From the NCBI GenBank assembly GCA_041690135.1, contig JAWLHY010000012.1:192001-256000 (forward strand): DNA of 64,000 bases, given 5' to 3'. Shown in pieces: positions 1-27,754 of this stretch. Below the pieces are notes generated by a model. The model was given only the letters and a program-made list of their open reading frames with translations. It had not been told where the DNA came from and searched no databases. A program made the translations under genes and the position numbers. The DNA comes from Armatimonadota bacterium (GTDB lineage: Bacteria; Armatimonadota; SYMT01). How positions within the stretch are numbered: the first letter of the stretch is position 1; the number at the start of each line of letters is the position of its first letter.

Positions 1-340
1 CCCCGCACAGAAGCCGGGGGCGGTCGGCGTTTCTGGGCTTGGCCCGGGGGCGGTGGGAGAAACTCCGGGGCTCGGGCCGCAGCAGGGGAAGCCGCAACGG
101 GTCCCCGCACCCCAGGGGATTCCAGCAACGGTACCTACGCGCGGCGCGTCGGTCGCGCAGCCGGAGCTTCCGGGGCCACCGCTTTCCCGGCAGTTGCCGC
201 TGGGGCAGAAGGTGCGGCACATCACGGGCCTGCGGGAAGCGGCGGACTGGCTGCCGTGGTTCCTCGCTGGCGGGGGCAACTGCCGCGCCAGGAGGGACGT
301 GGCGCCGGAGAAGGGAGGTGGTTGTTCGAATGGGGATTGA
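1..340 (+). pseudogene. 3' end or remnant of an ORF homologous to an internal Pro/Gly-rich segment of the 1790-aa polyvalent protein
   Basis: Frame is open from position 2 (PAQKPGAVGVSG...KPQRVPAP) to TGA at 340; nt 1-135 align by eye with 26626-26752 and nt 1-40 with 23953-23990. Confidence 0.55.
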
Positions 341-1050
341 TAGCAGACGATCGAGGAACGGAGTGCCAGGCCTTTGCTGCTGACTTTCGGGTGGTGACGG
401 ATAGGGTTCGTTTGCCTCTCGGGCTCACCTACGCCGGGGGCAGCGGAGCCCCACGCGGCACGACGGGTGTAAGCCCAAGGGCCGGCGGGGACGGAGATCC
501 CGCCACCCCCGCGGGGCGTAAACCTACTTCTTCAGGTGCGAGGACAGAGCTCATGCCGTTCACCAAGAGCCACTTCTGCCGTGGCGCAGAGGGGGCGTTG
601 ACCGCCGGATCCTGTGCGGCAAGTGAACCACCCGTTTCGAACCCGAAGGATGAGGGCGAAGAGAGGCCGAAAAACTGAAGCAACTGAAGGCGCGGATCGA
701 GAAGATCGTGCGAGCCGCGGTGGCGGCAGGAGCACTACCTCTCGAAGGGCTGGAAACCTGGTGGCAGAGACACGACTCGCCGGTTCATTCTCGAAGAGGT
801 ATCCAGTGAGGTTGGCTGTCGATCGTAGAACGAGTGCGACGGCTTGCTTCGGTGTTGAGGTGGCAGATGGAGAATGACTCACCCTCCTGCTGGACGCTCC
901 TTGATGCGGGCAGACCCTCGGATGGGGATAGTTCGCAGGCGGTGGAGACGGTCATCACAGAGGTGAGCGGATTGCGGAGGGCCTTCATTGGGAGGAGCGA
1001 CCGTAGGGCCTGCCATGGACCTCGAAAGCCCGGACCGCAGGAGCAAGAAG

Positions 1051-1329
1051 ATGGATCCTATGCAGCAAGACGTATTCCGCCTTTCCGGATTAGAGGAACA
1101 CTGCCTGGCCACGTCTCTCGAAATGGCGCTTGCCATGCTGGATGCACACCGATCTGCAGCCCTGCAGGACGAAGGCCTGGGGCGGATGTCGCCGGAAGAG
1201 ATTGCGAGAATGGATGCGGAACTGGAGCGGATCGATCGCCTGGTGCGGGAGAAAGTGGCCGCCGGGGAGTTGCCGCTGGAGGGGGCGGGCACCTGGGAGC
1301 AGTACTGGGGGTGCGAACTGTCGCAGTGA
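1051..1329 (+). CDS. Small acidic helical orphan protein (candidate immunity/antitoxin)
   Basis: AGGAG 7 nt before ATG 1051; 92 aa with amphipathic-helix-like composition; no family recognised. Confidence 0.65.
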   Translation: MDPMQQDVFRLSGLEEHCLATSLEMALAMLDAHRSAALQDEGLGRMSPEEIARMDAELERIDRLVREKVAAGELPLEGAGTWEQYWGCELSQ

Positions 1330-1481
1330 GCGGAGGAACTGCTGCGAGGTGTCGCTGACTGTTGAAGCCGCAGGCAGTGACGTCTTTCAGCCCTGGTGAA
1401 GGAAGGCGAGGAGAGCACCGAGTTATCCCGGCCTACCGGATGATGCTGGCTGGCGCAAGCAGCGCAGGCGAGGGTTACGAA

Positions 1482-1691
1482 ATGGACCCACTCAGTGAGT
1501 ATGCCGAACTTATTAAGAGGAAGCAGAAATTCTTGCGTGTGTCAGAAGCCAAGGCAAGGTTTATTGTGGCGCTGGAACTTGGCCTGATCGATGGTGACAT
1601 CCGTGAGGAGCGCAGTGCCGACAAAGTTGAGGATGATGAAGCTCACCAGAAACCATGGCCATCCGGAGAACCGCCAGGAGGCGGTAGGTGA
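1482..1691 (+). CDS. Small orphan protein (candidate immunity/antitoxin)
   Basis: GAGG before ATG 1482; MDPLSEYAELIKRKQKF...; stop overlaps the next start. Confidence 0.55.
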   Translation: MDPLSEYAELIKRKQKFLRVSEAKARFIVALELGLIDGDIREERSADKVEDDEAHQKPWPSGEPPGGGR

Positions 1692-1933
1692 CAGCTTCTG
1701 CGTTCATGGATGAAATCGAACGGCTGATACAAGCAGGTGACACCGCTGGAATAGTGGCACTGGAGAAGGAGTATTTTCAACGCTTGAAGTACGAGCTGTC
1801 CCCTGAGGATCGGACGCAGTTGAGCGGTGCCATCTTGCCCTGGGCCACCATGGTCGAGAAGGGAGTGGAGCATCAACGTCGCATAGTTGTTGCGGACGAG
1901 ACTGAGGCAGCGGCTTGGGGAGGTGACCAGTGA
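1688..1933 (+). CDS. Small helical orphan protein (candidate immunity)
   Basis: GGAGG upstream; overlaps neighbours on both sides (GTGA with the next gene). Confidence 0.65.
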   Translation: MTASAFMDEIERLIQAGDTAGIVALEKEYFQRLKYELSPEDRTQLSGAILPWATMVEKGVEHQRRIVVADETEAAAWGGDQ

Positions 1934-2286
1934 AACTAACTGTCGACCACATGGCGGACGACTGGGAAAGGCACACGGGACAGGTGGTAACGCTGAAAGG
2001 AATTCTCGTCAGCCTGGGTGCGGAATGCTGGCTGGCTCCGGTCTCCGGCCCCTATTCTCCCGGTCCGCGCTGCGTCTTGTTGGATCAAGATGGTCTGTTC
2101 GAGGATCTTCTTGACGTGGCGCCGCGAATCGTGGGGACCTCTTACCAGTACGCGCACACAGCCGCCGTAACCGGGCAACTCGAAGTCGCGAATGGAAAGC
2201 CGTGGCCATTTCGGCTCACTGTGTTGGAGCGCGTGCGTCTGGAAGAGGATCGCGACCGGTACGGAATTCTCTACCGATACCGATAG
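1930..2286 (+). CDS. Orphan beta-rich (OB-fold-like) protein, candidate immunity
   Basis: GGAGGT RBS, GTGA overlap with previous stop; GQVVTLKGIL...AAVTGQL strand pattern. Confidence 0.7.
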   Translation: MKLTVDHMADDWERHTGQVVTLKGILVSLGAECWLAPVSGPYSPGPRCVLLDQDGLFEDLLDVAPRIVGTSYQYAHTAAVTGQLEVANGKPWPFRLTVLERVRLEEDRDRYGILYRYR

Positions 2287-2312
2287 GTCGAACGATGGGA
2301 GTGGATCCCGGA

Positions 2313-2840: not shown

Positions 2841-3081
2841 GCCCGGAGGGAGTGCTTGACGGGAAGCGGGTTGGGCAGAAATTGCCCAGAGTGGCGCTTC
2901 CGGATGGCTAATTCCGCGCGGTTCGGACTATCTACCCTATGGGAGAACCGCATCATTCCCTGATTCACGGCAGGGTAAGGGCTTTGTACCGCTGGTGAGC
3001 TGGAACGCTCGCCGGACCGTGATCCCCCAGAGCGGTGGTTTCTTCGTCTCCGGGAGAGACGAGAAGCGAGGAGGAAGGCCG

Positions 3082-3303
3082 ATGAGAGACACCCTGCCCC
3101 TGGAGGAGTTGCTGCAGGACGAGGGCTGGCGCCTGGCCCGGCGGGAGCTGGAGCGGAAAGCCCGGGTGAAGGCGGAGCGAATCGCCACGCACCGGTACGC
3201 GGATCTGCTGGAGCTGCGCGAGGACCAGGCAGAGCTGCGGGTGCTGCGGCAGTTCCTGCGGAGCGACCGGGAGGTGGTGGAGTGGCTGGCGCCGCGGGAC
3301 TAA
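3082..3303 (+). CDS. Small phage head-module protein (type usually found between portal and scaffold)
   Basis: GAGGAGG RBS; 73-aa helical protein (EGWRLARRELE...QAELRVLRQFL); sits before the scaffold gene. Confidence 0.7.
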   Translation: MRDTLPLEELLQDEGWRLARRELERKARVKAERIATHRYADLLELREDQAELRVLRQFLRSDREVVEWLAPRD

Positions 3304-3311
3304 GCCGAATC

Positions 3312-3349
3312 TCACCACGGAGCCACGGAGACACGGAGAAGATCACGGA
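3312..3349 (+). repeat. CACGGAG short tandem repeat (host intergenic family)
   Basis: caccacggagccacggagacacggagaagatcacggag; a reverse-complement relative lies at 36927-36952. Confidence 0.7.
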
Positions 3350-3538
3350 GAGCGGATGAGCAATCCTCGGCGTCCAGTGCGATGAATGAGAGCTGTGATT
3401 AGCCAGCATATTCGCAACAGAAGCCAGGCGAGGAGAGCTGAGGGTCGAACAGAAGCCTAAAGGGCAGTCTCATTGGAGATTGCGCCCTAACGGGGTGTGT
3501 GCTCATTGATTTGCAGACAACTGAAGAGTGGATCTTGA

Positions 3539-3681: not shown

Positions 3682-4626
3682 ATGTTCGAAGACACAGAGC
3701 GAGAAGACTGGGACCCGATGGCGCTGGAGGGCGAACTGGAGCTGGAAGCGTTGGAGGATCCGGAAGACCCGGACGATCCCGAAGACGCGATCGAGATGGA
3801 CGAGGAGGAGGAAGAGCTTCCCGAAGAGCTCCAGGAGCGCCTGGCGGCGGAGCGGGAGCGCCTCCGCAATGAGTACGAGGCGGAGTTCAGCCAGCACAAG
3901 GCCAACTACGGCCGGCGGTTCGGCACGGCGCTCCAGGAACTGCGCGGGCTGGGGTTCGACGTGGCGGAAGACGGCAAGGTGGTGGTACGGGACCCCCAGG
4001 CCGCCGCGCTGTTGAGCCAGCTGCAGTCCGCGCCGGAAGAACTGCCGGTTGAGGACGAGGAGCCGCCGGATCCGGCTTACGACCCGCGAGGCTACGCCGA
4101 TTGGCAGATGCGGCAGGTCCACCGGGAAACCGCGGCGATGGTGGGACCCCTCCGGCAGGAGCTGGAGCGGCTCCGCGGGCATACCCGTCAGCAAGCCCTC
4201 CCGGTGGCGGAAGCCGACGCCCGGGAGTACCTGGCCGAGATGGGGTTCGCGGGGATCACGGACCATCCCGAGTTCAGCCAGGTCTTCGAACAGGCTTTGC
4301 AGTCTCTTCCGGTGGAGCAATGGAACAACCCGCTGGCGGTGCGCACCGCGGCCTTCACGCTCATTCCGACGCTGCAGGCGGCCAGTGGCGGAGGTCGGAG
4401 CGCGCGCCGGACGCCCCGGCAGATGACGGCGGACGCGTACCGCGCCAGCCTGGGGCAGGTGGGCCCCGGTCGCGGCGGGGTGCGGGCGGCCTCGCAGGGT
4501 TATCCGGCGGACGTGCTGGAGGCGGCCCGGGCGAGCGGGATGACGCCGGACGAGTACATGGCCTACAGCGATCCGGACACGGCACGGCAGTTCGTGGAGC
4601 GGAAGCGGAAGCGAGGAGGGCGCTAA
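3682..4626 (+). CDS. Phage capsid scaffolding protein
   Basis: GGAGG RBS; very acidic N-terminus, coiled coils, C-terminal GMTPDEY motif then basic tail; upstream of decoration and capsid genes. Confidence 0.8.
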   Translation: MFEDTEREDWDPMALEGELELEALEDPEDPDDPEDAIEMDEEEEELPEELQERLAAERERLRNEYEAEFSQHKANYGRRFGTALQELRGLGFDVAEDGKVVVRDPQAAALLSQLQSAPEELPVEDEEPPDPAYDPRGYADWQMRQVHRETAAMVGPLRQELERLRGHTRQQALPVAEADAREYLAEMGFAGITDHPEFSQVFEQALQSLPVEQWNNPLAVRTAAFTLIPTLQAASGGGRSARRTPRQMTADAYRASLGQVGPGRGGVRAASQGYPADVLEAARASGMTPDEYMAYSDPDTARQFVERKRKRGGR

Positions 4627-4629
4627 ACG

Positions 4630-5520
4630 ATGACCAGACCGGTAACTACGAATGGAGAAGGGGTGACGACCCAGCGGGCGAAGGGGACGCAGCGAGCGCT
4701 CGCACCCCTCCGGGATACCCGGCGCCCGGACGCGGGGGCGCCGCGAGAGAGTGACGGAGCGGACATGAAAGGGGGTGAGGGGGTGACCGAGCAGGCAAAG
4801 GTGACAGACAACCAGGCGGGAAGCGAAGGGAAGAACGGCGGGGAAACGGCGCCGTCCCCCCGCACCGGCGAGTATGTGCAGGCGCCGGTGGACACGCTGG
4901 AGGCGCACCAGCGGCTGGCGGAGCGGGTGATGGAGCAGTTCGAGGCCGGCGCGTTCAACCGGCCGGAGGCGCCGGTGGAAGCGGCGCGCGAGCAGCGGCA
5001 GGTGCAAAGCGAGGTGGACCGCACCGAGCGCGAGCTGCTGAAGCAAGAAGCGTTGAACCAGCGGAAGCAGCGCGAGGAGTTCATGCGGGCCGCCCGGGAG
5101 CGCCGGATGCCGCGGGCGGTGACCGCCTCCCCGTTTGACGCGATGCCCGATCCCACGCTGATCCTGGACGAAGACGGCCAGCCCGCGGGGACGCCCGGCC
5201 ATCACAAGAAGCACGTGCGGATGGTCGACGACGTGCTGCGCGAGAGCAGCGGCCGGGTGGGCCAGATGGCGGTGTGGGGCTATAAGCCGGTGAAGAGCCG
5301 GGTGACCGGGAAGCCGATCGCCACCCAGTTCGGGCTGCTGATGGAGTGCGCGCCCGAGGCGGAGGGCCAGCGTCGCGCCTTCCACGGGCGCCGGGTGGTC
5401 TCCGAGCAGCTCGCCAACGAGAAGCGGCTGGATGCGGCGATCGAGAGCGTGAACCGGGAGTTCGGTGGGGAAGCGATCCGGCCGTTCCGCGACCGGGACC
5501 ATACGGCCGGGCGGAAGTAG
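4630..5520 (+). CDS. Phage head-module hypothetical protein (true start may be 4765 or 4783)
   Basis: 296-aa ORF with high GC3; H-V-R...GYKPV...GLLMECAPE pattern resembles the gene found between scaffold and decoration in gpT-capsid podoviruses. Confidence 0.7.
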   Translation: MTRPVTTNGEGVTTQRAKGTQRALAPLRDTRRPDAGAPRESDGADMKGGEGVTEQAKVTDNQAGSEGKNGGETAPSPRTGEYVQAPVDTLEAHQRLAERVMEQFEAGAFNRPEAPVEAAREQRQVQSEVDRTERELLKQEALNQRKQREEFMRAARERRMPRAVTASPFDAMPDPTLILDEDGQPAGTPGHHKKHVRMVDDVLRESSGRVGQMAVWGYKPVKSRVTGKPIATQFGLLMECAPEAEGQRRAFHGRRVVSEQLANEKRLDAAIESVNREFGGEAIRPFRDRDHTAGRK

Positions 5521-5524
5521 GAGA

Positions 5525-5720
5525 GCTTCGCCGATTAAGATGAGGATTACGATTAGGATAAGGAGGTGAGAGGAGGCTTCGGGTGGAGGGTGGAGGGTGG
5601 AGGGTGGAGGGTGGGGAGGCTTCGCCGATTAGGATGAGGATTACGATTAGGATAACGAGGTGCGAGGCTGAGAGGAGGTTCTGGTGGGAGGTGGGAGGTG
5701 GGAGGTGAGGGGTGAGAGGT
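5525..5720 (+). repeat. Composite intergenic repeat: two GATTAGGAT-rich units flanking (GGGTGGA)n and (GGTGGGA)n heptamers
   Basis: gcttcgccgattargatgaggattacgattaggataa at 5525 and 5619; related copies at 7334-7367 and, on the minus strand, 47991-48030. Confidence 0.85.
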
Positions 5721-5776: not shown

Positions 5777-6295
5777 ATGGCAACGATAGATCGTGTCCAG
5801 GCCGTGTTCAAGTGCGGGCCTGGCGGCGGAACGGTAATAATGCGGGGTGGTCCGGGAGAGGCCGCGAGCGCCTACGAGGACGCCTCGCAGAGTTGGAAGG
5901 CAGGGGCCTGGCTCCTGCGGGATAGCGACGGCGAGATTGAAGAACTCGCCGTCAATGATACGGCCACGGATCCCACCAAAATCCTCGGACAGGCGGTGGA
6001 GGACGCAACGGGGACGGCCGGAGAGCCGGTGCTCTACCGGCCGCTACGGCCAGGCTCCATTCTGATCTGCAACGTCTACCACGGCACCGTAGGCAGCGCT
6101 GTCACGGCGCGGAACCTGATGGATGATCCCCACTTCAATTTCACCTACGTCGCGCGCAAGCTCCACCTGGACATCGAAACCGGCGTGGATACCGGCAAAC
6201 CGATGGGGCGTATCATCCGCATCCTCGACACGCTGGGGGACACGTACGGACGGGTGGAGGTGGAGGTGATCGACACGATTGCGCTCCAGGGCTAA
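5777..6295 (+). CDS. Capsid decoration/cement protein
   Basis: 172 aa, beta-rich, KILGQAVEDA-type motif; immediately upstream of the major capsid gene. Confidence 0.7.
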   Translation: MATIDRVQAVFKCGPGGGTVIMRGGPGEAASAYEDASQSWKAGAWLLRDSDGEIEELAVNDTATDPTKILGQAVEDATGTAGEPVLYRPLRPGSILICNVYHGTVGSAVTARNLMDDPHFNFTYVARKLHLDIETGVDTGKPMGRIIRILDTLGDTYGRVEVEVIDTIALQG

Positions 6296-6321
6296 TCCGC
6301 CCTGCAACTACGTTTCACGCG

Positions 6322-6356
6322 ACCGGCCGGAGAGTGATCTCCGGCCGGTTTTTCTT
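6322..6356 (+). terminator. Intrinsic terminator
   Basis: ACCGGCCGGAGA-gtga-TCTCCGGCCGGT followed by TTTTCTT. Confidence 0.8.
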
Positions 6357-6385
6357 GGACGGATTCTTATGGAAAGGAATGAGCA

Positions 6386-7327
6386 ATGGCAGTGATCGGG
6401 AGTCCCACGACGCGGGCACACATTCCGAACATGCTGGAGGCCAACCTGCGGAAGTACTTCCTGCAGAGCGGCCAGCGGTTCGAGAAGAACAACCTCTATC
6501 CCCGCTTCTATAAGGTGGAGACCAGCGACAAGAAGCTGGAGCGGCACACCGTGGCGGCGGGCTACGGCACCTACGTGGCGAAACCGGAAGGTGACGTGCC
6601 CACCTACGACAGCGGCCAGGAAGCGTGGGCCAAGAGCTACACGCACAACACCTACGCGCTGGGGGCGGAGTTCACCAAGGAATCGCTGGAAGACGACCTC
6701 CACGGCCTGGTGAAGCGCCTCTCCCAGGTGGGCGGCGCGCTGGCCTCGGTGGCGTACTACACCAAGGAGCGCGACGCGATGGACCTGTTCAACAGCTACC
6801 TGACGAGCGGGACCGTCTACTCCGCGGGCGGCAGTAACTACCCGCTGCTGGCCACGAACCACTTCCTGGTGACCGGCAGCACCTGGGCCAACAAGCCGAC
6901 CACCTCCCTCGACCTCTCCGTGGAGTCGATGGAGTTCGCCATCGGCCACTGGATGATCAACCAGGTGAACCAGCGCGGCCAGGTGATGATGACCCGTCCC
7001 AGCCTGCTGCTGTGCGGCGCCAGCGACTGGGCGATCGCGCGGCGCATCCTGGGGACCCGCAACCGCCGGCCGCAGACCGCCGACAACGACATCAACGCGC
7101 TCACCGACTACGACCTGGAGGACCTGGCGCATCCGCTGCTCACCAATGACGGTCGGTGGCTCCTCCTGGCGCCGAACGATCCGGACTACGGCCTGACCTA
7201 CTACGAGCGGGTGAAGCCGAACGTGGAGCGGTGGCCGGATGCCGACAACGGCAACCTGCGGATGTGCGGGCGGTACCGCGAGAGCCACGGCGCGACCCAC
7301 GTGAGCGGCGTGTGGGGGAGCGACTAG
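6386..7327 (+). CDS. Major capsid protein, HK97 fold, Mu gpT-like family
   Basis: 313 aa; ETSDKKLE...GYG...KPEG...YD...YTHNTYALG.EFTKESLEDD and DNDINAL motifs typical of gpT-type capsids; AAGGA RBS. Confidence 0.9.
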   Translation: MAVIGSPTTRAHIPNMLEANLRKYFLQSGQRFEKNNLYPRFYKVETSDKKLERHTVAAGYGTYVAKPEGDVPTYDSGQEAWAKSYTHNTYALGAEFTKESLEDDLHGLVKRLSQVGGALASVAYYTKERDAMDLFNSYLTSGTVYSAGGSNYPLLATNHFLVTGSTWANKPTTSLDLSVESMEFAIGHWMINQVNQRGQVMMTRPSLLLCGASDWAIARRILGTRNRRPQTADNDINALTDYDLEDLAHPLLTNDGRWLLLAPNDPDYGLTYYERVKPNVERWPDADNGNLRMCGRYRESHGATHVSGVWGSD

Positions 7328-7680
7328 CCTGCGGCCGATTGGGATGAGGATTGCGATCAGGATAAGGAGGCCGGCCTACGGCCGGGGAGAGCCTCGCCCT
7401 ATCCTGGGCTAAAGGTAACCGAGTAGGGGACTGATCGTGGATCCTGAAGTCAGCGCGACGGGCTGGGGAGCGATCCCCGGCCCGGTTCATTTTCTGGGGT
7501 CGCACCCCGCTAAGACCCTCTGGGATGACCACGCACAGATCCGTGGTGGACGTGATTGCCTTCACCGGCGCACGGGGTCAGGCGTGAATGGGGTTGTGAC
7601 GAATGTATTGTGACCCGGGTTGACTGCGAGGGGCTGCGCCGAGACGCGGCTTCTCGAGGGACAGGGTTGAGGAGAGCGTA

Positions 7681-7978: not shown

Positions 7979-8614
7979 ATGGATGTGACGGAGGGACGGC
8001 TGCTGTTCCGGTCGTTGACGAACGAGCAGGACACGATGGTGCTGCCGGATACCGGGGATGGTGCCGGGGACCAGGCGGTGGATACCTACTTGCAGCGGGG
8101 GCTGGAAGAGTTCAGCCGGCAGGTGGGCGGCTACTTGATCGAGGAGAATGGCGACCTGTCCCTCGGCACTACGGGGCAGGTGGCGCTGCCAACAGACTTC
8201 GTGGACGTGTTGTGGGTCCGCGCCGCCGGTGGATCCTATCTCAAGCGCACTACATACGAAGAGTTGTTGGCGAACAAGGTCAACTGGGACAGCACCGCAG
8301 GGGCGCCCACGGACTATCTGGTAGTTGGCACAAATCTGCAGTGTTCCCCAAAGCTGGGCAGCGGCACTCTGGGGTTGACCGTGAAGTACGTAGCAGCGCC
8401 GGGCGCCTACGACACCGCCGCCTTTACCGGCATCGCTGAGCAGGACCACGCCCTCCCCGTCTACTACGCGGCGGCGCTGTTCATTCAGTTGCACAATGAC
8501 GTGCCGGAGATGCAGGCGCGGGCGGCAAACCTGCTGGCGCTGTTCTACAAGGGCTGTGAGGGGGCGCGACCGTTCTACGAACGCAAAAGGATGCCGGGGC
8601 GGAGGGCGCCGTAG
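7979..8614 (+). CDS. Head-tail adaptor/connector protein
   Basis: AAGGAGGT RBS; YLQRGLEEF, LPTDF, GAPTDY, HALPVYYAA pattern of podovirus adaptor proteins. Confidence 0.75.
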   Translation: MDVTEGRLLFRSLTNEQDTMVLPDTGDGAGDQAVDTYLQRGLEEFSRQVGGYLIEENGDLSLGTTGQVALPTDFVDVLWVRAAGGSYLKRTTYEELLANKVNWDSTAGAPTDYLVVGTNLQCSPKLGSGTLGLTVKYVAAPGAYDTAAFTGIAEQDHALPVYYAAALFIQLHNDVPEMQARAANLLALFYKGCEGARPFYERKRMPGRRAP

Positions 8615-8675
8615 CAGAAGGCAGTGGGCAGAAGGCAGAAGCAAGAAGGCGGAAGGCAGGAGGCAGTGGGCGGAG
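8615..8675 (+). repeat. GGCAG(A/T)(A/G) heptamer tandem repeat
   Basis: cagaaggcagtgggcagaaggcagaa...; same family at 9361-9405 as (GGCAGTG)n. Confidence 0.8.
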
Positions 8676-8681
8676 GGAGCC

Positions 8682-11056: not shown

Positions 11057-11125
11057 ACTGCTTGGGGCGCCTGCAGGAAACAGATCCGAAGAGCCGGGGT
11101 TGCCGCCGGCACACAGAAAGTGAAT

Positions 11126-18192: not shown

Positions 18193-20378
18193 AGTTCAAC
18201 CTCTCCGGGTTCCTCGAAGGGGTCGCCGCCGTGCAGGCGGGCGCTATGGCCGGGCGGGCGCAGGGGCTGCAGGCCCGCCAGGACTGGGAGCGCCAGCAAC
18301 AGGCCGCGGAACTGCAGCGCCGGCAGGCCGCGCTCCAGCAGCAGGAGTTCGACTGGCGGCGCGCCCAGGCGGAGCAGGACGATGCCTATCGAAACCAGGT
18401 GCTCCAGACAAACCGGGACGAAGCCGCGCTCAAGCTGCTCCAGCCGGGCACGCCGGAGTACCTGCGCCTCGCTTCGCGCCTGACGGGTATACCGGCGCCC
18501 ACCATGCCCCCCGCGGCGCCGATTGGCCCGCTGCTCCAGGGAATGTTCGGGGGGCCGGGGCAACCCGAACCGGGGATGCCGTCGCTGAACGATCAGGCGC
18601 TCCCCAGCGGAATGCCGGCCGTCCCCATGCCCGTGCGCCCGGCGGCCGCTCCCGCCCCGGCAGCGTCGCCGTTTCGGGATCCGCGCGCGGAACAGTCGCT
18701 GGACAGCGCCTACACCAGCGCGATCAGCAAGTGGGAGGCGCTGCACACGCGGGAAACCGATCCGGCGCAGCGGGAGCGGGCGGCACGCGCCATCCAGGCG
18801 CTCCGCCAGGGCCAACTGCAGCGCCTACCGATCGACCGGGTAACGGTCGACGGCCAGCCGCTGGGCGCTGCCGGGATCGCCGCGCTGCCGGTGGTGAGCG
18901 TGGACCCCGCCCAGCAGAAGCGGGTGGCAGCGGATGTTGGGGCGCAGGTGAAGGCCCTCCAGTCGCTCGCGAAAGAGCTCCCGGAAGACGACCCGCTACG
19001 GGGCACCCTCGCCACCCTAGCGACGACGGCGCCGACCCCCGGCGACTACCAGAGCGAGGACGGGCTGGTAACAGCGGAGAACTGGGTGACCCGCGCGCTG
19101 GCAGCGACAGTGAGCGCACAGGGCCGGCTGGGACGGAAGGACGCGCTCTCTGAAGCCAAGCTCTACTCCGCCGAGCTCAAAAACAACATCCAGGGGCTAG
19201 CGGGGGCCAGCGGGCCGGTGCTGGTAGCGATGCTGCCGGAGCTGCTCGATGAGGAGACCGAGCTCGCCGGCAAGTACAAATCGGCAGTCCTTTTCCCGCC
19301 GCGCCTCCACGCCGAGCGCGCGAACATCCAGCGAATCCGCGACCTGGCGGCGTCCGAAGACCCGAATGCCCAGGTGCAGGCAGAGAACCTGGCGGAAGAG
19401 GTTACGGCGCGCATAACGGCCGGACTTTCGCCGGGCAAGGAACAGGCCGCGTTTCGCAACGCCATGCAGGTGATTGGGACGTGGTCCACCGCTGAGGTCT
19501 ACGACCCGGATAAGGTGCGGGAGGTCTTCGAAAGCCTGGACATCCCGCACCTTATCCCAGCAGGCGGGGTCGGCCTCGGTGGGCGGCGGGCCGAACAGCA
19601 CTTTGCAAAGCTGCTTGGCGAGCTCCCGGCGATGGCAAAGCTCAACCCCGCGGGGCAGGCCACCTTCCTGGCGGAATTGTCCGGTGCCGCGGCAGCCGCC
19701 GGGAAGAAGATCCCCATTCCGGCGCAGATCGTGCTCCAGATGAGCCCCGAGACCCGAGAGCGGCTCGCTCTCCAGCGGGATCGGATCAACCTGGTGGGCA
19801 GCCGTCTCGATCTGGCCATCGCCAACCACGATCTCTCCCGCAGCCGCTTCCTCTACCAGCTTCGCAAACAGCAGGCAGGCGGGGGTCCCGATCCCGTGGC
19901 GGCGAAGCAGGCGGCCAACCTGAAGCGGGACGCGGACCGGGCGTTCTCGATCTGGAAGCAGTTCGTGGAGCGGCCAGAGAATAAGAAGCTGATGCCCGAC
20001 TACGCGCCGGGCGTGGGACCGCCCCCGGCGCCGGGGGCGATGCCGATCCTCGGGGGAATCTTCGGCGGGAAGGGGAAGCCGGCCGCCGATCCCAAGGGCG
20101 AGCGGTGGAAGCGCGCCAACGAGCTGTACCAGGCCTACCGCGCCGCGGAGCAGAAGTTCCAGAACGCCGCCGCCCCGAAGCCGGCACCGGTAGATACGAG
20201 CGACCTGGAGCCCGGCCCCGCGCCGCAGCGTCAGTCAACTAACGGCCGGGTGACGGTGAAACCGAAGTCCGGTGGCTCGAACCGCGATCGCTATATCACC
20301 GCCCTCCGTGCGTCCGGCCAGTTGACCGAGGCGCAGATCCAGAACCTCGCGAACCAGCGTTATCCCCCGAAGAGATAG
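18189..20378 (+). CDS. Internal virion / ejection protein
   Basis: GGAGGT RBS, ATGA overlap; LSGFLEG N-terminus, Gln-rich coiled coil, helical body; between the pilot and the giant gene. Confidence 0.75.
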   Translation: MKFNLSGFLEGVAAVQAGAMAGRAQGLQARQDWERQQQAAELQRRQAALQQQEFDWRRAQAEQDDAYRNQVLQTNRDEAALKLLQPGTPEYLRLASRLTGIPAPTMPPAAPIGPLLQGMFGGPGQPEPGMPSLNDQALPSGMPAVPMPVRPAAAPAPAASPFRDPRAEQSLDSAYTSAISKWEALHTRETDPAQRERAARAIQALRQGQLQRLPIDRVTVDGQPLGAAGIAALPVVSVDPAQQKRVAADVGAQVKALQSLAKELPEDDPLRGTLATLATTAPTPGDYQSEDGLVTAENWVTRALAATVSAQGRLGRKDALSEAKLYSAELKNNIQGLAGASGPVLVAMLPELLDEETELAGKYKSAVLFPPRLHAERANIQRIRDLAASEDPNAQVQAENLAEEVTARITAGLSPGKEQAAFRNAMQVIGTWSTAEVYDPDKVREVFESLDIPHLIPAGGVGLGGRRAEQHFAKLLGELPAMAKLNPAGQATFLAELSGAAAAAGKKIPIPAQIVLQMSPETRERLALQRDRINLVGSRLDLAIANHDLSRSRFLYQLRKQQAGGGPDPVAAKQAANLKRDADRAFSIWKQFVERPENKKLMPDYAPGVGPPPAPGAMPILGGIFGGKGKPAADPKGERWKRANELYQAYRAAEQKFQNAAAPKPAPVDTSDLEPGPAPQRQSTNGRVTVKPKSGGSNRDRYITALRASGQLTEAQIQNLANQRYPPKR

Positions 20379-20381: not shown

Positions 20382-23300
20382 ATGGCACTCACTCCGGAAG
20401 AACTCGCGGCCCAGGACCTCGCCCAGGTCCTGGGCCGTTCGCGCATGTCTGGCTCCGACCCGCACGCCCGTCTTGTTACCATCGCCGCGAAGCGGTATGG
20501 GGTGGATGAGGACCTGATCCGCAGGGTTATTCGGCAGGAATCGGGCGGGAATCCCCGCGCTGTCTCCCCGGCCGGCGCTCAGGGTCTCATGCAGTTGATG
20601 CCGGCAACGGCAAAGAGCCTGGGAGTGCGGGATCCCTTCAATCCGGCCGAGAACATTGACGCGGGGGTGCGGTATCTCCGCCAGCAGTTGGATGCATTCG
20701 GCGGCGACGAGCGCCTGGCGCTGGCCGCCTATAACGCGGGGCCAGGGAACGTCCGGAAATATGGTGGGGTGCCCCCGTTCCCGGAAACCCGGCAGTATGT
20801 CGCCCGGATCACCCGCGGCCGGACCGGTGGCCGGATGAGTTCGCGCGGCGGCACGGCGCATCTGACCCCGGAGCAGCTCGCCGCCCAGGACCTGGCGCGG
20901 GTCACCGGCGCGAAGGCCGGTGGTAAGACAGGCACGCTCACGCCCGAGCAGTTGGCCGAGCAGGATCTGGCAAGTGTGCTCGGCCCGGATCCGGTGATGG
21001 AGGCCATCCAGCGCCGCAAGCGCGGCGTGCGGCTCGGCAATCTGGCTCCCACACCGCAGCCGGCCGCGAAACCGGCGCCCAAGGTCGATCTCGCCGGAAT
21101 GCGTCGCCGGGTGCAAGAGCTGGAGAGCACGATCAACGGTCTCCGCCAGCAGCGGGACGCGCTGCCCCCAAACGCCCCGTCCGGACCCCTGCGCCGGCTG
21201 ATTGCCCAGCGCATCTCCGAGATGACCCTGCTGCAGCAGCAGATCGAGGAGGCAGAGACCGGGAAGGCCCTGCCGCTGATGCACCCGGACTCCGTCGCCC
21301 ACCGCCGGCTGCGGGCGGAGCGCGCGCAGAAGCAGGCCGCGGCGCCACCGAAGCGCCCCGTCGATTTCGTGCGGATGCAACCGGTCCGGACCGAGACCCC
21401 GGTAGAACAGGTGCGCAACTTCGTGGCAGGGGTGATCGGCGCCGACCCCAGCCGGGCGCAGTCGCGTGAGATGGTGGACACGCGTGCCGCACGCGCCGGG
21501 CGCCCCCCGTTCCAGGCGACGGACGCCGAACTGCTGGAACTCCAGGCGCTGGAGCCGGCGATGGAAAGATACCTCCAGTTCAGCCGGGGCCGGGGCACGA
21601 ACACCCAGGTGGTGGGGGACGTGGTGATCCCCCAGCCGGAAGATCCCCATTACCGACAGCAGGGATATTCCCAGCCTTACACCGAGGCGGATTTCCGGAA
21701 CTTCCTGCGGCGCGAGGTGTTCGGCGCCAAGGGCCGGTTGACGCCGGTCCAGGAAGCGGCGCTTCCCTACCTGGTGGAAGCCCTGCGGGTGCGGGCGGAT
21801 GAGCGGCAGCGCGGGATTGTGCGGACCAGTTCCCGGTTGGCCGATATCGCGGTAGGGCTAATGACCGGCGGCTCTGGATCCGTGGCCCAGATGGGCCTCA
21901 AGGGCTTCCTGCTCGACCAGGGGAGGCGTCGCGCGATTTCCGGCGGCAGTGCTGCGGCCTCGCGCCTGACCGCGGATGCGGCGAACCCGGATTTGACCGT
22001 GGAGCAGCGGCTGAAGGGGGCAGCCAGCGACGCCGCGCTGGCGATGGGCGTGGACACCCTGACTTCGACCGACCCCATCGTGCGTGACCTGGCGCGTGGG
22101 CGCAAGAACCTCGGGCCGGGGGCCGGGTTTGGCGAGGCGCTGGAGCGCGGGCAGGAGATTACCCGACGGCACGGCGCCCAGAAGCAGGCGAAGGCGCAGC
22201 GGCTGGCGGCGGAAAGGGCAGGGACGACTACGTCTGCGCCTGCTCCATCCCCAATGGCCGCTCCGGAAGCCACAAAGCCAGTGCCATCGGCAGGGATGGA
22301 ATCGATCCCCACCCCCGCTCCCACCATTGGGTCTCGGGTGGTGGTGCGTTGGGAGGACGGATCCACCCTGGAAGGGGAGATTCTCCGCCTCTCCAAGACA
22401 GGCAAGTCCGCTTACATCCGCGGCAGCGATGGCAAGGATCTGGACAAGCCGGTGTTGCTCAAGGACCTGGAGCTTGCCCCGGCTACCGCGGGCAGTGGCC
22501 CTTCCGCGGGTCCGGCGCCAGCCCAGGCGCTAAAAACAGAGGCATCTGGCACTCCCAGCCCCGACAACGATCTTTACTCGGGTCCGTATCCAATCCGCAA
22601 GCGGTCAGGACTCTCGCCGCAAGAACGTGCCGGGGAGGCCCAACGCGCGCAGTACGTCCAGGAGCATATGGATGAACTGGTAGAGGCCTACTACCGTGCA
22701 AATGAAGGTGGGCGGGTCATCAGCTCAGATCGCGCGAAGTGGTTGTTCGCGGAATACCAAGATGAAGCCACGCGCACCGCAGTAGACCGGGAAATCTATT
22801 CTGCCGCGAAAGCCGTCTCGGACGAGGTATTCCGTCGCAAGGTGGCGGAACCAGCCGCCCCAGGACAAAAGGACCTCGTCATTTTCCTCTCCGGCGGACC
22901 GGGTTCCGGAAAGTCGAGTTCGATCAGCGGGTCGCCCGCGGTGCAGGCCGCACACAGCAATGCTCGTCTGGTAGTTGACGGTACCCTTTCCGATATTGAG
23001 GCGGCCCGTCAAATGATGCGGGCCGTAGATGCGCGTAAGAGCAAGCGCATGCTGATCTACGTGTATCTGCCTGCGGATGAAGCGGTCCGCCGGGCAGTCG
23101 ATCGCGCGATGGATGTAAAGGGACCGGACTATTTGCGGGCCGTAAACCTAGAGAACCTCGCTACAGCTCACTACGGAGCCCAGAATACGGTGCTCCGCTT
23201 GGCGGACGAGTTCCCTGACCTTGCAATTGCAATTCTTGACAACCGTGGTCAGCAGGGGCAAGTCGCCGAACTGAGTTTGGACGAACTACGCCAACTCAGG

Positions 23301-25754
23301 TATCGTAATGTGGAAGACGTAAAGGCGCAAGTCCGAGCCGCTTATGATGCGGAATACACCCGACGACAAGGAACAGCAGATGCCATCCCCGACTCCCTCC
23401 ACCGCGGGTTCACGGGTTCTTACGCCCGAAATGCAACAGGAACTCGAGATCTTCAAGGAAAACCTCAATCAGGTCCGGAAGGAAGCGGCGGAAAGGCAGC
23501 GCCAGAAGATGGAAACCTCCCGGACGACCCCGGCGACCCCGGAACTGGCGGAGTAGGCCCCCGCCCCCCTGCCCCTCCTAGCGGCGGTCCGGCCGCTCCC
23601 TCTGCCATACCTCCTCGAGAGAACGACCCCTCTTCCCCAACACCCACCACGTCTGACGGTGGAGCGGCTACCCCCGATCGTAGAAACACCACCGGGCTGG
23701 CCAACCAGGTGCAGGAGGGGGAGGTGGAGCTCGGGATCATCGCGCCCCCGGAGAAGGGGGTGAGCGCCGGGGCGCAAGAGGCCCATGCCGAGGGGAAGCG
23801 CCTGGTGGAGGCCGGCGGGAAGCCACTCCCGCGCCGCGCTCCGGCAGGGGCTTCCGGAGAGACGCCCTTCGGGGATCTTCCTCCCGCAGGAGGCCCACCC
23901 CGCGGAGCGCCGCCCGGTGACTCCGGACAACCAAACTCGAAAACCTCAACCGCCCCCGCGCAACAGCCGGGGGCGGTTAGATTTTCTGGACCCGGCGGGA
24001 GGAGGATCCCCACCGCACCCAGGCAGGGGACGGGCGCGAGGACCGCTCCGCCCGCTTCTGCGCCGGCCGTGCCCAACCAGCAGGAGGTGGAGCGGGAGAT
24101 TGATGTGGTCGTGGAGCGGCTCAAGAGCGGCGGCCGGAAAGGCAACGCGAGCCGGTCCTTCACCCGTGCGGGGGATGAACAGCGGCTGCAGGACCTCCGG
24201 CAGGAGCGGCAGGACCTGGTGCGCGGCCGGGGCGGGCGGTTCCGGGTCGGGGAGCCGGTAGTCGGCACCCAACACAACGGAAAGAAGGAGGCGCTGGTCT
24301 ACGACGGGATGGCCAGCGACACGCACGCGTACGTGAAGGACCCCCGAACGGGGAAGCGCCGGGCGGGCACGGTGCCGGTCGGGAGCCTCCAAAGAACCCG
24401 ATCAGCCCCACCTCAGTCGGATATGGTCGGCGTGCGAAGGACTGCTGAGGGCCAGACTCTACGGGTTCCAGGTTCTGGGGCTCCGGTAGGCCGGCGAGCA
24501 GATCTCCACGCCCGATTGGATGTGGCGGAAGCCACCGCCCGGCAGAAGCTGGCTGCGCTCCGGGCCTCGCGCCGGGGCGGGAAGCTCGCGTCGGAATTGG
24601 GCGGCTTCAACGACCTGCTGGAGGAGGCCTCGCACTGGATCGAGATCGGCGCGGTGCAGATGGCACGGGGGCTCGTGGACTTCGAAGCTTGGTCGCGCCG
24701 GATGCTGGAGGCGGTGGGGGACGAACTGCGGGCCACGGGGCGGAACGTGGATGAATTACTCCGGGAGATCTGGAACGCATCACGAAAGAAGTATGCGGAA
24801 GAGCGGCGGAGTAATCCTGCAGAAGGGCCGGAGAACGTTGAGCCGGATCATAAGCTAGATTTGGCGGTTGGAACGAAAGGTGAGTCGCAGGACTCGGCTC
24901 ACCCACTCCAGTTCAAAACCAAACCCGCCACAGCCGCAAGTGGCGAAGGTCGCCGCAGTCCATCCTCACAGCGCCGGGGAAGCGGAGGGGTTCATGATGC
25001 GTGGAGACAACCAGGCATGCCCAGAGTCCGCTGGAATTGGTCTGGTATTAAGGGGGCAATGCAGTCCGATCGAATCAACGAAGACACTCTGCTCGCTGCA
25101 GTCGAGGACTGGCGCAATAGTATGGAGCTGGATTTCTCGCGGATGGAGATTCGTCTACTTCCGCAGGAAGCGAAGCGCCGTCCCCATCTAGATCTTAGCG
25201 CAGATGTGATCAACGATAACCCTGTCTATGTGCACGGCTTTGTCAACGCAAGGAGCCCGCATGCAATCCATCTCTACAATCCCACCTCGGAATGGCCGGA
25301 CATTCGACAGGATATGCTGCGTGATCTCTATCGTGCACATGGGCGTGGCCTATTGTCTCCTCAAGACTTCCTTGACTTCGTGCGTGAAGCTCCGCGATTA
25401 GCCGAGGAATATATTGCGGGAACTCTGAAGCATGAAACGGGACACTCGCTTCTGGTCGAAACCTTCGGGAATCACCGCCGGCGGAGGTTCAAAGGTTGGC
25501 AGCGACTCATGCCCGATCATCTGTATGGTGTGATGGTAAGTGCGCTGAAGCTGGCTGGGACGAAGACTGACAATGATGCGATTGCAGATTCTATTGCGGA
25601 AGCGGTTGCAGAAGACGTGCGCCGGTGGCATACTGGCTATTATAGCCCTCTCAATAGTCAGACCTGGTTGGCCGATGCGGCCGATCCACATGGAGCTTGG
25701 GAACGTGCAGAGGAGGTATGGAAATGGCTGAAAAACGCTCACGACCGGCGGTAG
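20382..25754 (+). CDS. 1790-aa polyvalent ejection protein: lytic transglycosylase, zeta-toxin-like kinase, SH3-like domains, C-terminal HExxH domain
   Basis: QESGG...GAQGLMQL...ALAAYNAG (SLT, about 20460-20815); GGPGSGKS at 22893-22916 with VVDGTL and ILDN; IGA..MARG..DF..WS..M helical motif; HETGH at 25431-25445. Confidence 0.9.
23380..23556 (+). CDS. Nested +1-frame 58-aa protein, candidate antitoxin of the zeta-like domain
   Basis: AAGGA at 23368-23372, 7 nt before ATG; [32 protein letters not shown] is an amphipathic helix while the host frame is a low-complexity linker. Confidence 0.6.
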
Positions 25755-25945: not shown

Positions 25946-26192
25946 GTGGCCTTGGCGATGATGTCTGGCTGAGATTTCGATGGACATTCATCCCAAGAGC
26001 AACCCACGTGAAAGGTCGAATGAGGCTTTGACGACCCCTGCCCTCAGCCGAATCTTCGACGCAGCGGTTCACTTTGGCGCAGGTGACGTCGTTATCGAGG
26101 AGGACCCCGAGGCCACGTCCTTTCCGAAACAGGTGGGCGGCGTAGACGTCGCCTACTGATCCCTGCGAAAGCGTGCCGTCACCAGATTCCAT

Positions 26193-26231
26193 AAGCCGCC
26201 CCAGGGAGTTTTCCCTCGGGCGGCTTTTTTT
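26193..26231 (+). terminator. Intrinsic terminator
   Basis: AAGCCGCCC-cagggagttttccctc-GGGCGGCTT followed by TTTTT. Confidence 0.8.
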
Positions 26232-26299
26232 CGCGTACCCAGAGGCGACCCCTCGCCGGACGCCGGGTGACGCTCCGGAACCGGATACTGAGCGAGGGC

Positions 26300-26761
26300 G
26301 TCGCCGGGAAGAACCCGGAAACGGGCAGCACACACAAGAGCCGGAAGGGGTCCCGGCGAAAGCAACCGGAGCTCGCCCACGCCCGGTGGAAGGGACGGAC
26401 GAGACTTCCCTGACGGGAACTGTGGCCACCGCCACGACCCGGGCCGCGCGGAACGCCGCCCGGACCGCCTCCGGTACCCAGACGACTACGGCCTCGCCTT
26501 TGGGCGGGAACGTGGACACCCCCGGTGGGTCAGCCCCGGCAGGTGGAGCACCCCCCACGGGGGAAGCCACCCCGCGGCGCGCCGCCCGGCGGCCCCGGAC
26601 AATCGCAACCGAATACCACCACCGCCCCCGCGCAAAAGCCGGGGGCGGTCCGCGTTTCTGGCTCGGGAACACCGGAAGACACTCGGGGGTTCGGGCCGCC
26701 GGAGAGGAAGCCGCAGCGGGTTCCCTGTCCCAGCGGGTTCCAGCACCGGTACCACAGATAA
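26300..26761 (+). pseudogene. Frameshifted remnant of a polyvalent-protein linker (candidate silent cassette)
   Basis: 26540-26665 aligns to 23872-23995 ([10 protein letters not shown]....TAPAQ.PGAVR.SG); 26626-26752 aligns to 1-135; no credible start. Confidence 0.65.
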
Positions 26762-26998
26762 TACGTGGAGACGTTACGGAGGGGCGACGCCGCCTGGTAG
26801 CCACATCTCGGAGGAAGATTACCATAAGTCGGGCTACCTTCTGCTACAATGGAAACTGTCAGGGTTACAAGCTAAGGGCCGTATGCTAGTCTGGCCTATA
26901 AGCATTCTGGGCCGGTAGACATTCGCTGTGGATGGCCACGACGAGGTCGCCACGAGGCGGGCTCCCCATCCATCTCTGTGTGGCAAGGCGGTGACAGG

Positions 26999-27460
26999 TT
27001 GCCTCAGAACGTTGCGATCTATGGCTATGCACCGGATATCGAAGAGATTCCGGAGAGCCTGCGCAGCATGACCGGAGAGGCTGTGCACGTAGAGGCGCAG
27101 GACGGCCAGTGGAGCAGCATCACGATACAGGGCCGGAACGCTACGCTCGTGTTCCGCTGCCTGCGGCCAGGACCGCCCCCGGACGACTTCTCGCGCGGCA
27201 TCCTCGGGATCTATAACTACGCCAAGCGTATCAAGGCAACATCGGAAGAGATCCAGAAGGAGCTGCTGCACCATCTGGCCAATGCGAAGTGCATCATTGC
27301 CGTAGTGGCCACGCCAGGCTTTGACGTCGATGCCGGGCACCCGGATCTGATTGCGGAAGTTTGCGATCGTGCCGATGGAGTTTTGTTCAATGGCAGGGAC
27401 TTCCTTAATGTGGAGTGGGACGTCCTGCTGGGCGCGGATGGAAGTAGCGAGGTGGAGTAA
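26999..27460 (+). CDS. Orphan immunity-like protein (resembles the N-terminal region of DUF4272 proteins)
   Basis: GGCGGT before TTG 26999; NVAIY...GIYNYAKRI...DGVLFNG...LLGADG; lower GC3 than the host. Confidence 0.7.
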   Translation: MPQNVAIYGYAPDIEEIPESLRSMTGEAVHVEAQDGQWSSITIQGRNATLVFRCLRPGPPPDDFSRGILGIYNYAKRIKATSEEIQKELLHHLANAKCIIAVVATPGFDVDAGHPDLIAEVCDRADGVLFNGRDFLNVEWDVLLGADGSSEVE

Positions 27461-27466
27461 GGCGAC

Positions 27467-27754
27467 ATGGTGATCCGTGGAGAAGACGAGGGCTACTTCT
27501 GGTTCGATGACCCCACCCCAAATGGCCCCCCTGATAAGGAATTCTTCGACCTGGCACGGGGATTGTCCCACCTCACTGCGTGGGAGTTGCAGATTGCGTT
27601 AGACGACCTGGCGGAGCAGCTTGGAGTGGCGGCCCCGAGTGCGGAACACTTCCTGGCCACGGGTGAGCTGGACCCCTACCCCGGCGACCCTGCGGATGCC
27701 GTGAAGTGGGCGCTGCCGGCCCCCCGAAGCCGGGCCGACGCACCGGAGGGGTAG
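27467..27754 (+). CDS. Small acidic orphan protein (candidate immunity)
   Basis: GGAG upstream; ATG 6 nt after the previous stop; 95 aa. Confidence 0.65.
   Translation: MVIRGEDEGYFWFDDPTPNGPPDKEFFDLARGLSHLTAWELQIALDDLAEQLGVAAPSAEHFLATGELDPYPGDPADAVKWALPAPRSRADAPEG

Follow-up and report, generated by a model that had tools for sequence, protein, structure and literature searches.

The DNA analysed here (the window) is a stretch of 64,000 nucleotides (nt) from an Armatimonadota bacterium (GCA_041690135.1, contig JAWLHY010000012.1), whose genome comprises 9.1 Mb in 25 contigs with 65% GC. It corresponds to C12:192001-256000, C12 being our label for this contig of ~285 kb, and the adjoining upstream stretch L001 corresponds to C12:172001-192000; coordinates without prefix are those of the window. 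The locus carries a phage-derived element of ~50.6 kb, which spans C12 ~169,130-219,760 (window -22,870 to 27,760) and has its right two thirds in the window. On the left, host histidine kinases and oxidoreductases resume beyond C12:169113. On the right, as an earlier reading of the window from its letters (hereafter the sequence-only reading) had seen, the element abuts a host LysR regulator (27948-28841, minus strand; Pfam HTH_1 and LysR_substrate), with host metabolic genes beyond. The gene content is best explained by a putative uncultured podovirus lineage with SU10-type portal and adaptors, a T7-like order of ejection genes and a large terminase (TerL) made by two genes. The same evidence is best explained by two predicted virion-associated polyvalent proteins of 1447 and 1790 amino acids (aa), each ending in a linker, a hairpin, a shared module and a variable, low-GC candidate effector domain.

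Genes for lysis, packaging and the portal occupy C12:175314-182802 (window -16686 to -9198) on the same contig. The set starts with a holin-like transmembrane protein of 101 aa, which adjoins an endolysin (GH108 and PG_binding_3; phrog_315, E 9e-48), and continues with a 199-aa gene in the position of TerS. Two adjacent open reading frames (ORFs) follow, which encode the ATPase part and the nuclease part of the large terminase (L001:5357-6259 and 6261-7217, C12:177357-179217). The gene between terminase and portal (L001:7520-8515, C12:179520-180515) encodes 331 aa with a tandem of GroES (Cpn10) domains; GroES was the sole match of element proteins in NCBIfam, and the gene is kept at the same position in the metagenome relatives L088, L089 and L090 (24-40% identity). 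The portal (SU10_portal PF23899, E 1.2e-20) ends at L001:10802, is 24-31% identical to its best match among GenBank phages and is followed by a strong intrinsic terminator, which separates it from an accessory gene array. The sequence-only reading had described a machine devoid of terminase, portal, integrase, holin and endolysin. This is accurate for the window and does not hold as a property of the element: the premise fails, since the packaging and lysis genes sit 9-17 kb left of the window, and their apparent lack is a window-edge effect. Its own caveat, that packaging genes may lie to the left, was correct, and the upstream survey it had proposed revealed terminase, portal and lysis genes, without an integrase or an attachment-site (att) repeat.

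The first terminase ORF possesses Walker-B-like and TTPN motifs and weakly matches the ATPase domain of T4 gp17 (E 8e-4). The second, of 318 aa, matches phrog_2 (E 3.6e-8). It is also 26-27% identical to proteins annotated as large terminases in Rhizobium and Pasteurella phages, and it aligns with the C-terminal 60% of a Pelagibacter phage gene of 501 aa. All 36 of its non-self homologues, at 42-61% identity, are 304-366 aa long, and a soil-metagenome relative of ~90% identity likewise has a separate C-terminal ORF of 318 aa. The split is therefore not a lesion, and a frameshifted pseudogene was ruled out on the same grounds; judged from these sequences, a large terminase encoded as two genes is a trait of the lineage. 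The relative L090 has the TerL C-terminal domain appended, as a C-terminal fusion, to an already complete Terminase_6N and Terminase_6C protein of 741 aa. A single literature search on split large terminases returned nothing relevant; reports of such genes may nonetheless exist.

In the window, a continuous run of plus-strand genes with strong, host-like coding statistics extends over 2995-25754; the core genes have host-like codon usage and coding scores of 0.45-0.74. The podovirus-type morphogenesis module noticed in the sequence-only reading is thus real, with capsid, adaptors and a protein combining SLT (transglycosylase) and zeta domains. The first gene (2995-3303; 102 aa, coding score 0.60) has no family match. 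It is followed by an acidic helical, scaffold-like protein of 314 aa (3682-4626), with homologues directly after the portal in L090 (35% identity) and L088 (25%), a scaffold-like coiled-coil protein of 296 aa (4630-5520; 31% identity in L090) and a small head gene of 172 aa (5777-6295), whose counterparts in L088 and L090 (33-34%) stand just before the capsid gene. The major capsid protein (6386-7327) was identified by Phage_capsid_4 PF25209 (E 3e-9) and is 53% identical to that of L090; its gene has a GC content at third codon positions (GC3) of 0.94. In IMG/VR, 419 of 421 candidate stretches were confirmed as relatives of the capsid protein, the best segments reaching up to 36% identity. Two adjacent SU10_adaptor paralogues (PF24175, E 3.3e-9 and 3.5e-12; phrog_2941) are located at 7979-8614 and 8682-9359, the second alternatively starting at 8496.

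Downstream of the adaptors, assignments become less specific. The stretch 9494-11951 comprises a 178-aa gene and a tandem pair of paralogues (10148-11056 and 11241-11951), which have 45% identity over 240 aa; no family was matched, and all three are considered tail or fibre genes by position. Judged by their place and length, the 980- and 848-aa proteins (11994-17538) are candidate tail, nozzle or fibre parts; their region has one weak match, to phrog_3287 (E 8.6e-4), and the 848-aa protein contains ~4 tandem 168-bp units at 15460-16165 with 74-75% identity. A G/Q-rich protein of 210 aa and a 729-aa protein (17560-20378) occupy the positions of T7 gp14 and gp15, an order that suggests an internal core or ejection role. 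Save for the weak PHROG match, none of these four larger proteins (980, 848, 210 and 729 aa) matched Pfam, NCBIfam, PDB or GenBank phages. Together with the 1790-aa ejection protein, the last gene of the block, the late programme is complete: holin-like protein, endolysin, TerS position, TerL, portal, scaffold, capsid, adaptors, tail and three ejection proteins.

The 1790-aa protein (20382-25754) is the richest in recognisable domains. Its SLT domain (20475-20768, residues 32-129; E 2e-31) retains the catalytic Glu-Ser pair at 20538 and is placed N-terminally as in T7 gp16 (PDB 7eyb_I and 6yt5_G were matched). A zeta kinase domain follows at ~22644-23321 (Zeta_toxin PF06414, E 1e-7; bit scores 31.9-37.1 against a cut-off of 22.3). 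Residues ~755-980 match residues 29-241 of the gonococcal Zeta_1 toxin 6eph_B (E 4e-10), the P-loop GGPGSGKSS (22893-22919) aligns with GIPGSGKTS of that toxin, and an N-terminal Asp-containing stretch is conserved. No antitoxin family, and hence no epsilon-type antitoxin, was found among the neighbours; this weighs against a toxin-antitoxin module, not against kinase activity. Further downstream come a PG-rich linker with a hairpin read in frame (23949-23977, the seventh of eight copies), a module shared with other element proteins (24027-24401), a helical domain (24402-24791) and a low-GC C-terminus (24792-25751), in which HETGH (25431-25445) and a later Glu-bearing helix fall within the last ~320 residues. 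A metallopeptidase is predicted here from the HExxH motif and the downstream Glu. This C-terminus has no other homologue among long proteins; shorter proteins were not searched.

According to the available part of the account of phage polyvalent proteins, HExxH with a later Glu-bearing helix is the minimal zincin signature of their metallopeptidases (MPTases) (PMC5512222). The same source describes polyvalent proteins with MPTase, lysozyme or transglycosylase, ADP-ribosyltransferase (ART) and zeta-like kinase domains, and suggests recombining cassettes (Iyer et al. 2017, PMC5512222). These are likewise large and virion-associated, with lytic transglycosylase and effector domains, and zincin-like MPTases, ARTs and a zeta-toxin-like kinase are named there. 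Here, SLT and zeta domains stand in one polypeptide, which is encoded beside virion and packaging genes, and the 1790-aa protein appears to fit this known class. The toxin payload proposed in the sequence-only reading, a zeta-kinase and metallopeptidase effector in the largest ejection protein, was right in kind and corresponds to the published polyvalent proteins; the kinase half is borne out by the matches to the Pfam family and the PDB chain and by the preserved P-loop, and the peptidase half is predicted from its motif and the downstream Glu.

Between the portal and the scaffold genes lie ~12.9 kb that have no counterpart in L088 and L090. In both relatives the portal gene is directly followed by two scaffold-like genes, the small head gene and the gene for the capsid, and the array is therefore an insertion. 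It opens with the gene for the 1447-aa protein, which starts at L001:10860, directly after the portal, in the position typical of MuF toxins, and has an ORF of 102 aa next to it. Residues 1-780 of the protein matched no Pfam family at E up to 10, and so no MuF family, the MuF3 and MuF4 profiles not being among those searched; its N-terminus had no match in GenBank phages. The C-terminus holds HECAH and a downstream Glu-bearing helix.

A PG-rich linker followed by a module of ~125 residues is common to four proteins of the element, namely those of 1447, 692, 1790 and, at the far left end, 337/467 aa. Among 1.84 billion representative proteins the module found four matches, all of them from this genome, so that on present sequences it is private to this lineage. 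The copies in the 1447- and 692-aa proteins share 1033 bp at 85% identity, with indels in multiples of three, while what comes after the module is mutually unrelated: HExxH domains of two kinds, DUF3626 (E 1.9e-8) and a helical domain. The 692-aa gene repeats the 3' part of the 1447-aa gene, truncated at its 5' side and provided with another end, an arrangement that matches the orphan cassettes of contact-dependent inhibition (CDI), Rhs and Maf loci. The SopF protein of Salmonella is an ADP-ribosyltransferase. DUF3626 is, in the part of the source consulted, the domain of that effector (PMC6682159), and a domain of this SopF type is carried by a spare 5'-truncated cassette.

Base composition changes sharply along these proteins. 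The shared modules have a GC content of 0.71-0.73 (GC3 0.81-0.87), similar to the core genes for portal, TerL C-terminal part, capsid, 729-aa and 980-aa proteins (0.66-0.70; GC3 0.84-0.94), and the three C-terminal domains drop to 0.52-0.56 (GC3 0.50-0.54). The genes just downstream of the 1447-, 692- and 337-aa genes (102, 96, 129 and 226 aa) are equally poor in GC (0.49-0.55; GC3 0.55-0.57). These breaks support horizontal exchange of C-termini together with their neighbour genes, as far as composition can tell.

Further decayed cassette copies are found on both flanks. The remnant cassette at 2-340 (plus strand) is paralogous to the gene of 265 aa at C12:187662-188459, with which it has 74% identity over 96 aa, and is truncated, its frame ending early. 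The right end of the array consists of five small orphan genes on the plus strand (1015-1329, 1362-1691, 1688-1933, 1930-2286 and 2295-2840; GC3 0.55-0.74), and the last two genes of the element are again small orphans of 160 and 95 aa (26978-27754, plus strand; coding scores 0.43 and 0.39). Small orphan genes thus do flank the block on both sides, as noted previously. Their designation as immunity-like arrays holds for the arrangement, which resembles that of polymorphic toxins (module, unrelated low-GC ends, low-GC small genes), and not for families: searches of the small genes against Pfam, NCBIfam and PADLOC gave no immunity, antitoxin or defence family (PADLOC nothing credible), and most of the ~25 small genes are without any family match. 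A diverged and broken partial copy of the right-end ejection gene makes up the leftmost 5 kb of the element, with 29-33% identity to residues ~205-738 of the 1790-aa protein and 65% to residues 1183-1478; it resembles what a related second element, inserted in tandem, would leave as a stump.

Another observation concerns two paralogous small Cys-rich proteins (L001:15219-15527 and 17059-17466; phrog_33375), which are 44% identical to each other. Each follows a HExxH-like gene or domain (HECAH, HDVCH), and they may represent a conserved enzyme-partner pair.

The joints between linker and module are marked by a 29-nt hairpin, ACCGCCCCCGCGCAACAGCCGGGGGCGGT. Allowing up to five substitutions, it occurs in eight copies in the 9.1-Mb genome, all on the plus strand and all inside the element. 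The 9-bp stems (CCGCCCCCG and CGGGGGCGG) and the following TTTCTG are identical in all eight; changes are confined to the loop or the outer base, and conservation of the flanking columns falls to 3-6 of 8. The region is predicted to fold as RNA at -38.4 kcal/mol (z = -3.85). In all four long ORFs the hairpin is read in a single common frame, three copies stand in short decayed frames and two have AT-rich non-coding DNA upstream. One of the latter, the sixth, lies at the left edge of the window (1-40, starting at window -4; plus strand) with its TTTCTG tail. The eighth (26621-26649, plus strand) belongs to a 115-aa hybrid remnant frame, in which upstream type U1 meets downstream type D2. Flank types are mixed across the hairpin in general: the PG-rich upstream type U1 is joined to D2, D3, D4 and D5. 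The pattern was found neither in IMG/VR nor in 97 other loci examined, and Rfam had no match in the element. An integron-like array, which eight same-strand hairpins might call to mind, was rejected, as no Phage_integrase match exists on the contig. We read the hairpin as a probable favoured site at which cassettes are exchanged. In two metagenomes, contigs pass from one paralogous copy to another (L001:17792 to 13529), which is weak evidence of gene conversion between cassettes.

The repeats could, on the other hand, be mere decaying duplications and the hairpin an ordinary translated regulatory or terminator element, with neither exchange nor toxin-immunity logic. Several copies are indeed truncated or frameshifted, and the failure to find an immunity family agrees with such a view; three true intrinsic terminators do exist elsewhere in the element, but the hairpin, with its 9-nt loop and weak T tail, was not called by the terminator scan. 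Simple decay is also at odds with a stem invariant in eight of eight copies beside flanks conserved in 3-6, with the free combination of U1 with four downstream types, with the sharp break in composition after the module and the low GC that the C-termini share with the genes downstream of them, and with the copy switch in the contigs of two metagenomes. We consider this explanation unlikely.

Leader regions, insertions and host repeats add further structure to the element. A leader of ~200 bp, R2, with the palindrome TTGGGCAGAAAYTGCCCA, heads three gene blocks; it has no copy elsewhere in the genome, and the three palindrome copies are likewise all in the element. The third R2 copy (2861-3058, plus strand; palindrome TTGGGCAGAAATTGCCCAG at 2871-2889) is 81-85% identical to C12:169266-169444 and 174500-174588 and is the probable control region of the head-tail operon. 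The second is interrupted by a 634-bp insertion (C12:174589-175222, L001:2589-3222), which a contig from a soil metagenome skips. The insertion gives rise to an ORF of 157 aa with a sigma-region-4-like helix-turn-helix and contains a dispersed host repeat of 130 bp (26 matches). A 174-bp element resembling miniature inverted-repeat transposable elements (MITEs), with 19-bp terminal inverted repeats, is located at C12:169662-169835 (window -22338 to -22165) and has two other copies in the genome, C1:790016-790188 and C10:288193-288366, at 92-93% identity. A dispersed host repeat of 227 bp lies at 405-631 (29 matches on 12 contigs, up to 88% identity). Together with the gaps at 3305-3360, 5521-5669, 7322-7385, 8596-8678 and 9350-9408, this gives six places with genome-shared sequences, at 7-29 matches each on 5-12 contigs. 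The host repeats that the sequence-only reading had placed in intergenic gaps are therefore present as shared sequences; most are purine-rich tracts, not repetitive extragenic palindromes.

The purine-rich tracts (GATTAGGATGAGG, GAGTAAGAG and GGCAGTGGGCAG types) stand just 5' of gene starts and occur also at C12:176608-176827 and 179210-179443. They recur at 1-91 places elsewhere in the genome, on other contigs, and may be a host-wide leader or ribosome-loading motif, not mobile repeats.

Relatives of the element are rare among genomes. The portal family was detected in 2 of 401 genomes of the phylum and in one of the 41 nearest relatives, this genome itself, and in none of the six other genomes of the same family; no genome of the same genus was in the set. 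Neither a collection of species genomes nor IMG/VR contained portal-family relatives. Distant relatives exist on metagenome contigs of up to 72.9-75.4 kb, with portals of ~50% identity and TerL C-terminal parts of 42-61% (~50% on the longest contigs), and one homologue of the element proteins (P0019) is annotated as from an Armatimonadota metagenome-assembled genome. The closest relative is a 9,207-bp soil-metagenome contig, which extends over L001:4920-13644, reaching from TerS into the beginning of the 1447-aa gene, at ~90% identity; we take it to be the Logan contig of exactly this length that yielded the two proteins of that relative. A word search in sequencing runs pointed to two metagenomes with a small share (0.07) of the query words and listed no RNA run; X1 contigs from this search hardly covered L001:18677-20000, which we do not count as evidence. 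In the portal, 24 of 633 residues (63-695) differ from the soil relative against 145 nt differences in the matching 1900 nt, a rough dN/dS of ~0.07, and 307 of the 318 residues (97%) of the TerL C-terminal ORF are identical at ~90% DNA identity of that piece. Given so little protein divergence relative to DNA, the packaging genes have been under selection since the two copies diverged, and by this comparison purifying selection on portal and terminase appears strong. This occurrence suits a mobile phage lineage more than an element domesticated throughout a clade, although domestication could still apply inside an unsampled genus. The patchy occurrence that the sequence-only reading named as pointing to an ordinary temperate phage was found in part, and of the complete left arm with att sites that it named beside it the terminase, portal and lysis genes are there and the att repeat was not found. 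A search for the empty site in genomes of the same family gave paralogue-level matches for the flanking histidine kinase and a sulfatase orthologue on a tiny contig.

Compared with known systems, the element combines several partial likenesses. Relative to published polyvalent proteins, as far as the available text of PMC5512222 goes, the variable domains here sit on a lineage-private module with invariant 29-nt hairpins as joints, at least one spare cassette contains a 5'-truncated copy of the main gene, and neither an LPD nor a MuF domain was detected. MuF toxins are, in the accessible part of their description, encoded directly after the portal with small ORFs downstream (Jamet et al. 2017, PMC5576092). 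The 1447-aa gene shares this position, what looks like an enzyme-like C-terminus and the small 102-aa ORF next to it; it differs by the lack of a MuF family in its N-terminal 780 residues, and the second carrier is of gp16 type, not MuF. Neither 'orphan' nor 'recombination' appears as a word in PMC5576092.

Both the ejection genes and the portal recall cultured podoviruses. T7 has the gene order gp14-gp15-gp16, with an N-terminal transglycosylase in gp16, and here too the three genes in a row after the tail genes end with the largest, whose product has SLT at its very N-terminus. The 1790-aa protein is ~450 residues longer than its T7 counterpart and adds the kinase, the module and the HExxH domain, and the two preceding proteins lack similarity to gp14 and gp15. 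The portal (PF23899) and the two adaptor genes (PF24175) match the SU10/Kuravirus podoviruses above cut-off, and the SU10 genome is close in size to the relatives' contigs of 73-75 kb. Unlike SU10, the element shows at most 31% identity to GenBank phages, a split terminase, a tandem-GroES gene beside the portal, integration and the absence of early genes. PBSX-like prophages and gene transfer agents (GTAs) resemble it in having lysis, packaging, head and tail genes without integration or replication genes recognisable by profile searches. A podovirus-type build and effector cassettes are, to our knowledge, not features of PBSX or GTA systems, and the portal frequencies given above, from a set without a same-genus genome, show no clade-wide vertical conservation of the kind expected of those.

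On balance, we lean towards an integrated prophage, grounded but recently functional, with recombining effector cassettes, whose early region was lost or never brought in. Paralogy, composition and hairpin joints lend real support to a polymorphic-toxin logic for the predicted cargo. The two cargo proteins would be packed in the particle and ejected together with the DNA; the SLT domain would open the cell wall, and the kinase, peptidase and ART-like domains would then act inside the entered cell. New C-termini, along with the small genes downstream, would be acquired through recombination within the shared module or at the hairpin.

Several results weigh against such a prophage or against parts of its cargo. 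The Phage_integrase profile matched seven genes elsewhere in the genome and none on the 285 kb of C12, and serine recombinase (Resolvase) and rve transposase profiles matched none in the genome. There is no tRNA gene within 2 kb of either element end, nor any in the window, and the ends share no direct repeat longer than 8 bp that could represent att. The same gene content would be expected of a domesticated particle, and the MITE, the dispersed repeats and the 634-bp insertion argue for long residence. Both HExxH domains (HETGH and HECAH) lack a match in Pfam, NCBIfam and PDB; the tail and ejection roles of the 980-, 848-, 729- and 210-aa proteins are suggested by position, that is, by order and size; and an immunity role of the small genes is conjecture, with no known immunity family matched. 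In addition, genes scanned with the profile libraries included no repressor or replication family, and a scan of coding potential revealed no minus-strand gene block of the kind typical of lysogeny modules. Some 13-mers shared between the ends, considered as att sites, were discarded as internal paralogy.

The locus could alternatively be a domesticated particle of GTA, PBSX or bacteriocin type, induced by the host to deliver effectors or random DNA to neighbours, with the small genes protecting kin. A complete late programme without any integration, lysogeny or replication gene recognised by profile search in 50.6 kb would suit it well, as would purifying selection on portal and terminase, the three private palindromic leaders at the head of three gene blocks, host repeats and a MITE inside the element, host-like codon usage of the core genes and the foreign composition of the pairs of C-termini and small genes. 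An active phage accounts for the purifying selection equally well, however, no immunity family was recognised, and the relatives of the TerL C-terminal part (42-61%) on 72.9-75.4-kb metagenome contigs look like a free phage lineage. The rarity of the portal family (2 of 401 phylum genomes, none of the six of the same family) likewise counts against it, and domestication seems to us improbable. The device outlined in the sequence-only reading survives in its zeta payload and in an arrangement like that of toxin cassettes; its packaging-less premise does not, and the immunity role of the arrays is conjecture.

A fully functional temperate phage would require that integrase, repressor and replication genes are too divergent to be recognised or hide among the unnamed small genes. 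Most of the ~25 small genes have no family match, the lineage is far from cultured phages, with a best GenBank portal of 24-31% identity, and all late genes look intact. Sensitive tyrosine and serine recombinase and rve profiles nevertheless find nothing on the contig, neither an att repeat nor a lysogeny-like minus-strand block is seen, and decayed cassettes and host repeats suggest no tight constraint on genome size; we regard this explanation as quite unlikely. Just as doubtful is a late-gene-only, capsid-bearing PBSX- or GTA-like weapon kept under purifying selection, whose two cargo proteins would draw toxic C-termini from a local cassette library at the 29-nt hairpin; if true, it would be a new way to program what a phage-derived particle injects.

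Should the cassette reading of the prophage hold, phage virion proteins would be organised like CDI, Rhs and MuF toxins, with spare C-terminal modules and a structured joint, and the locus would offer a concrete place to study how phages diversify their injected content. The element is one of a very small number of phage elements linked to an Armatimonadota-like host, and it documents a podovirus lineage with a large terminase in two genes.

Some genes outside the element are worth mentioning. A 173-aa protein with a LexA DNA-binding domain alone (E 1e-17; L002:11721-12242, that is C12:163721-164242) is encoded 5 kb left of the element, past a 1323-aa histidine kinase, and could be a regulator. 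To the right, a 785-aa family-B DNA polymerase with exonuclease and polymerase domains (60841-63198) lies amid metabolic genes 33 kb from the element. Also surrounded by host metabolic genes is a 246-aa dual-specificity phosphatase (36882-37622), which matches Pfam families named for polymorphic-toxin and 'Swiss Army Knife' conflict proteins.

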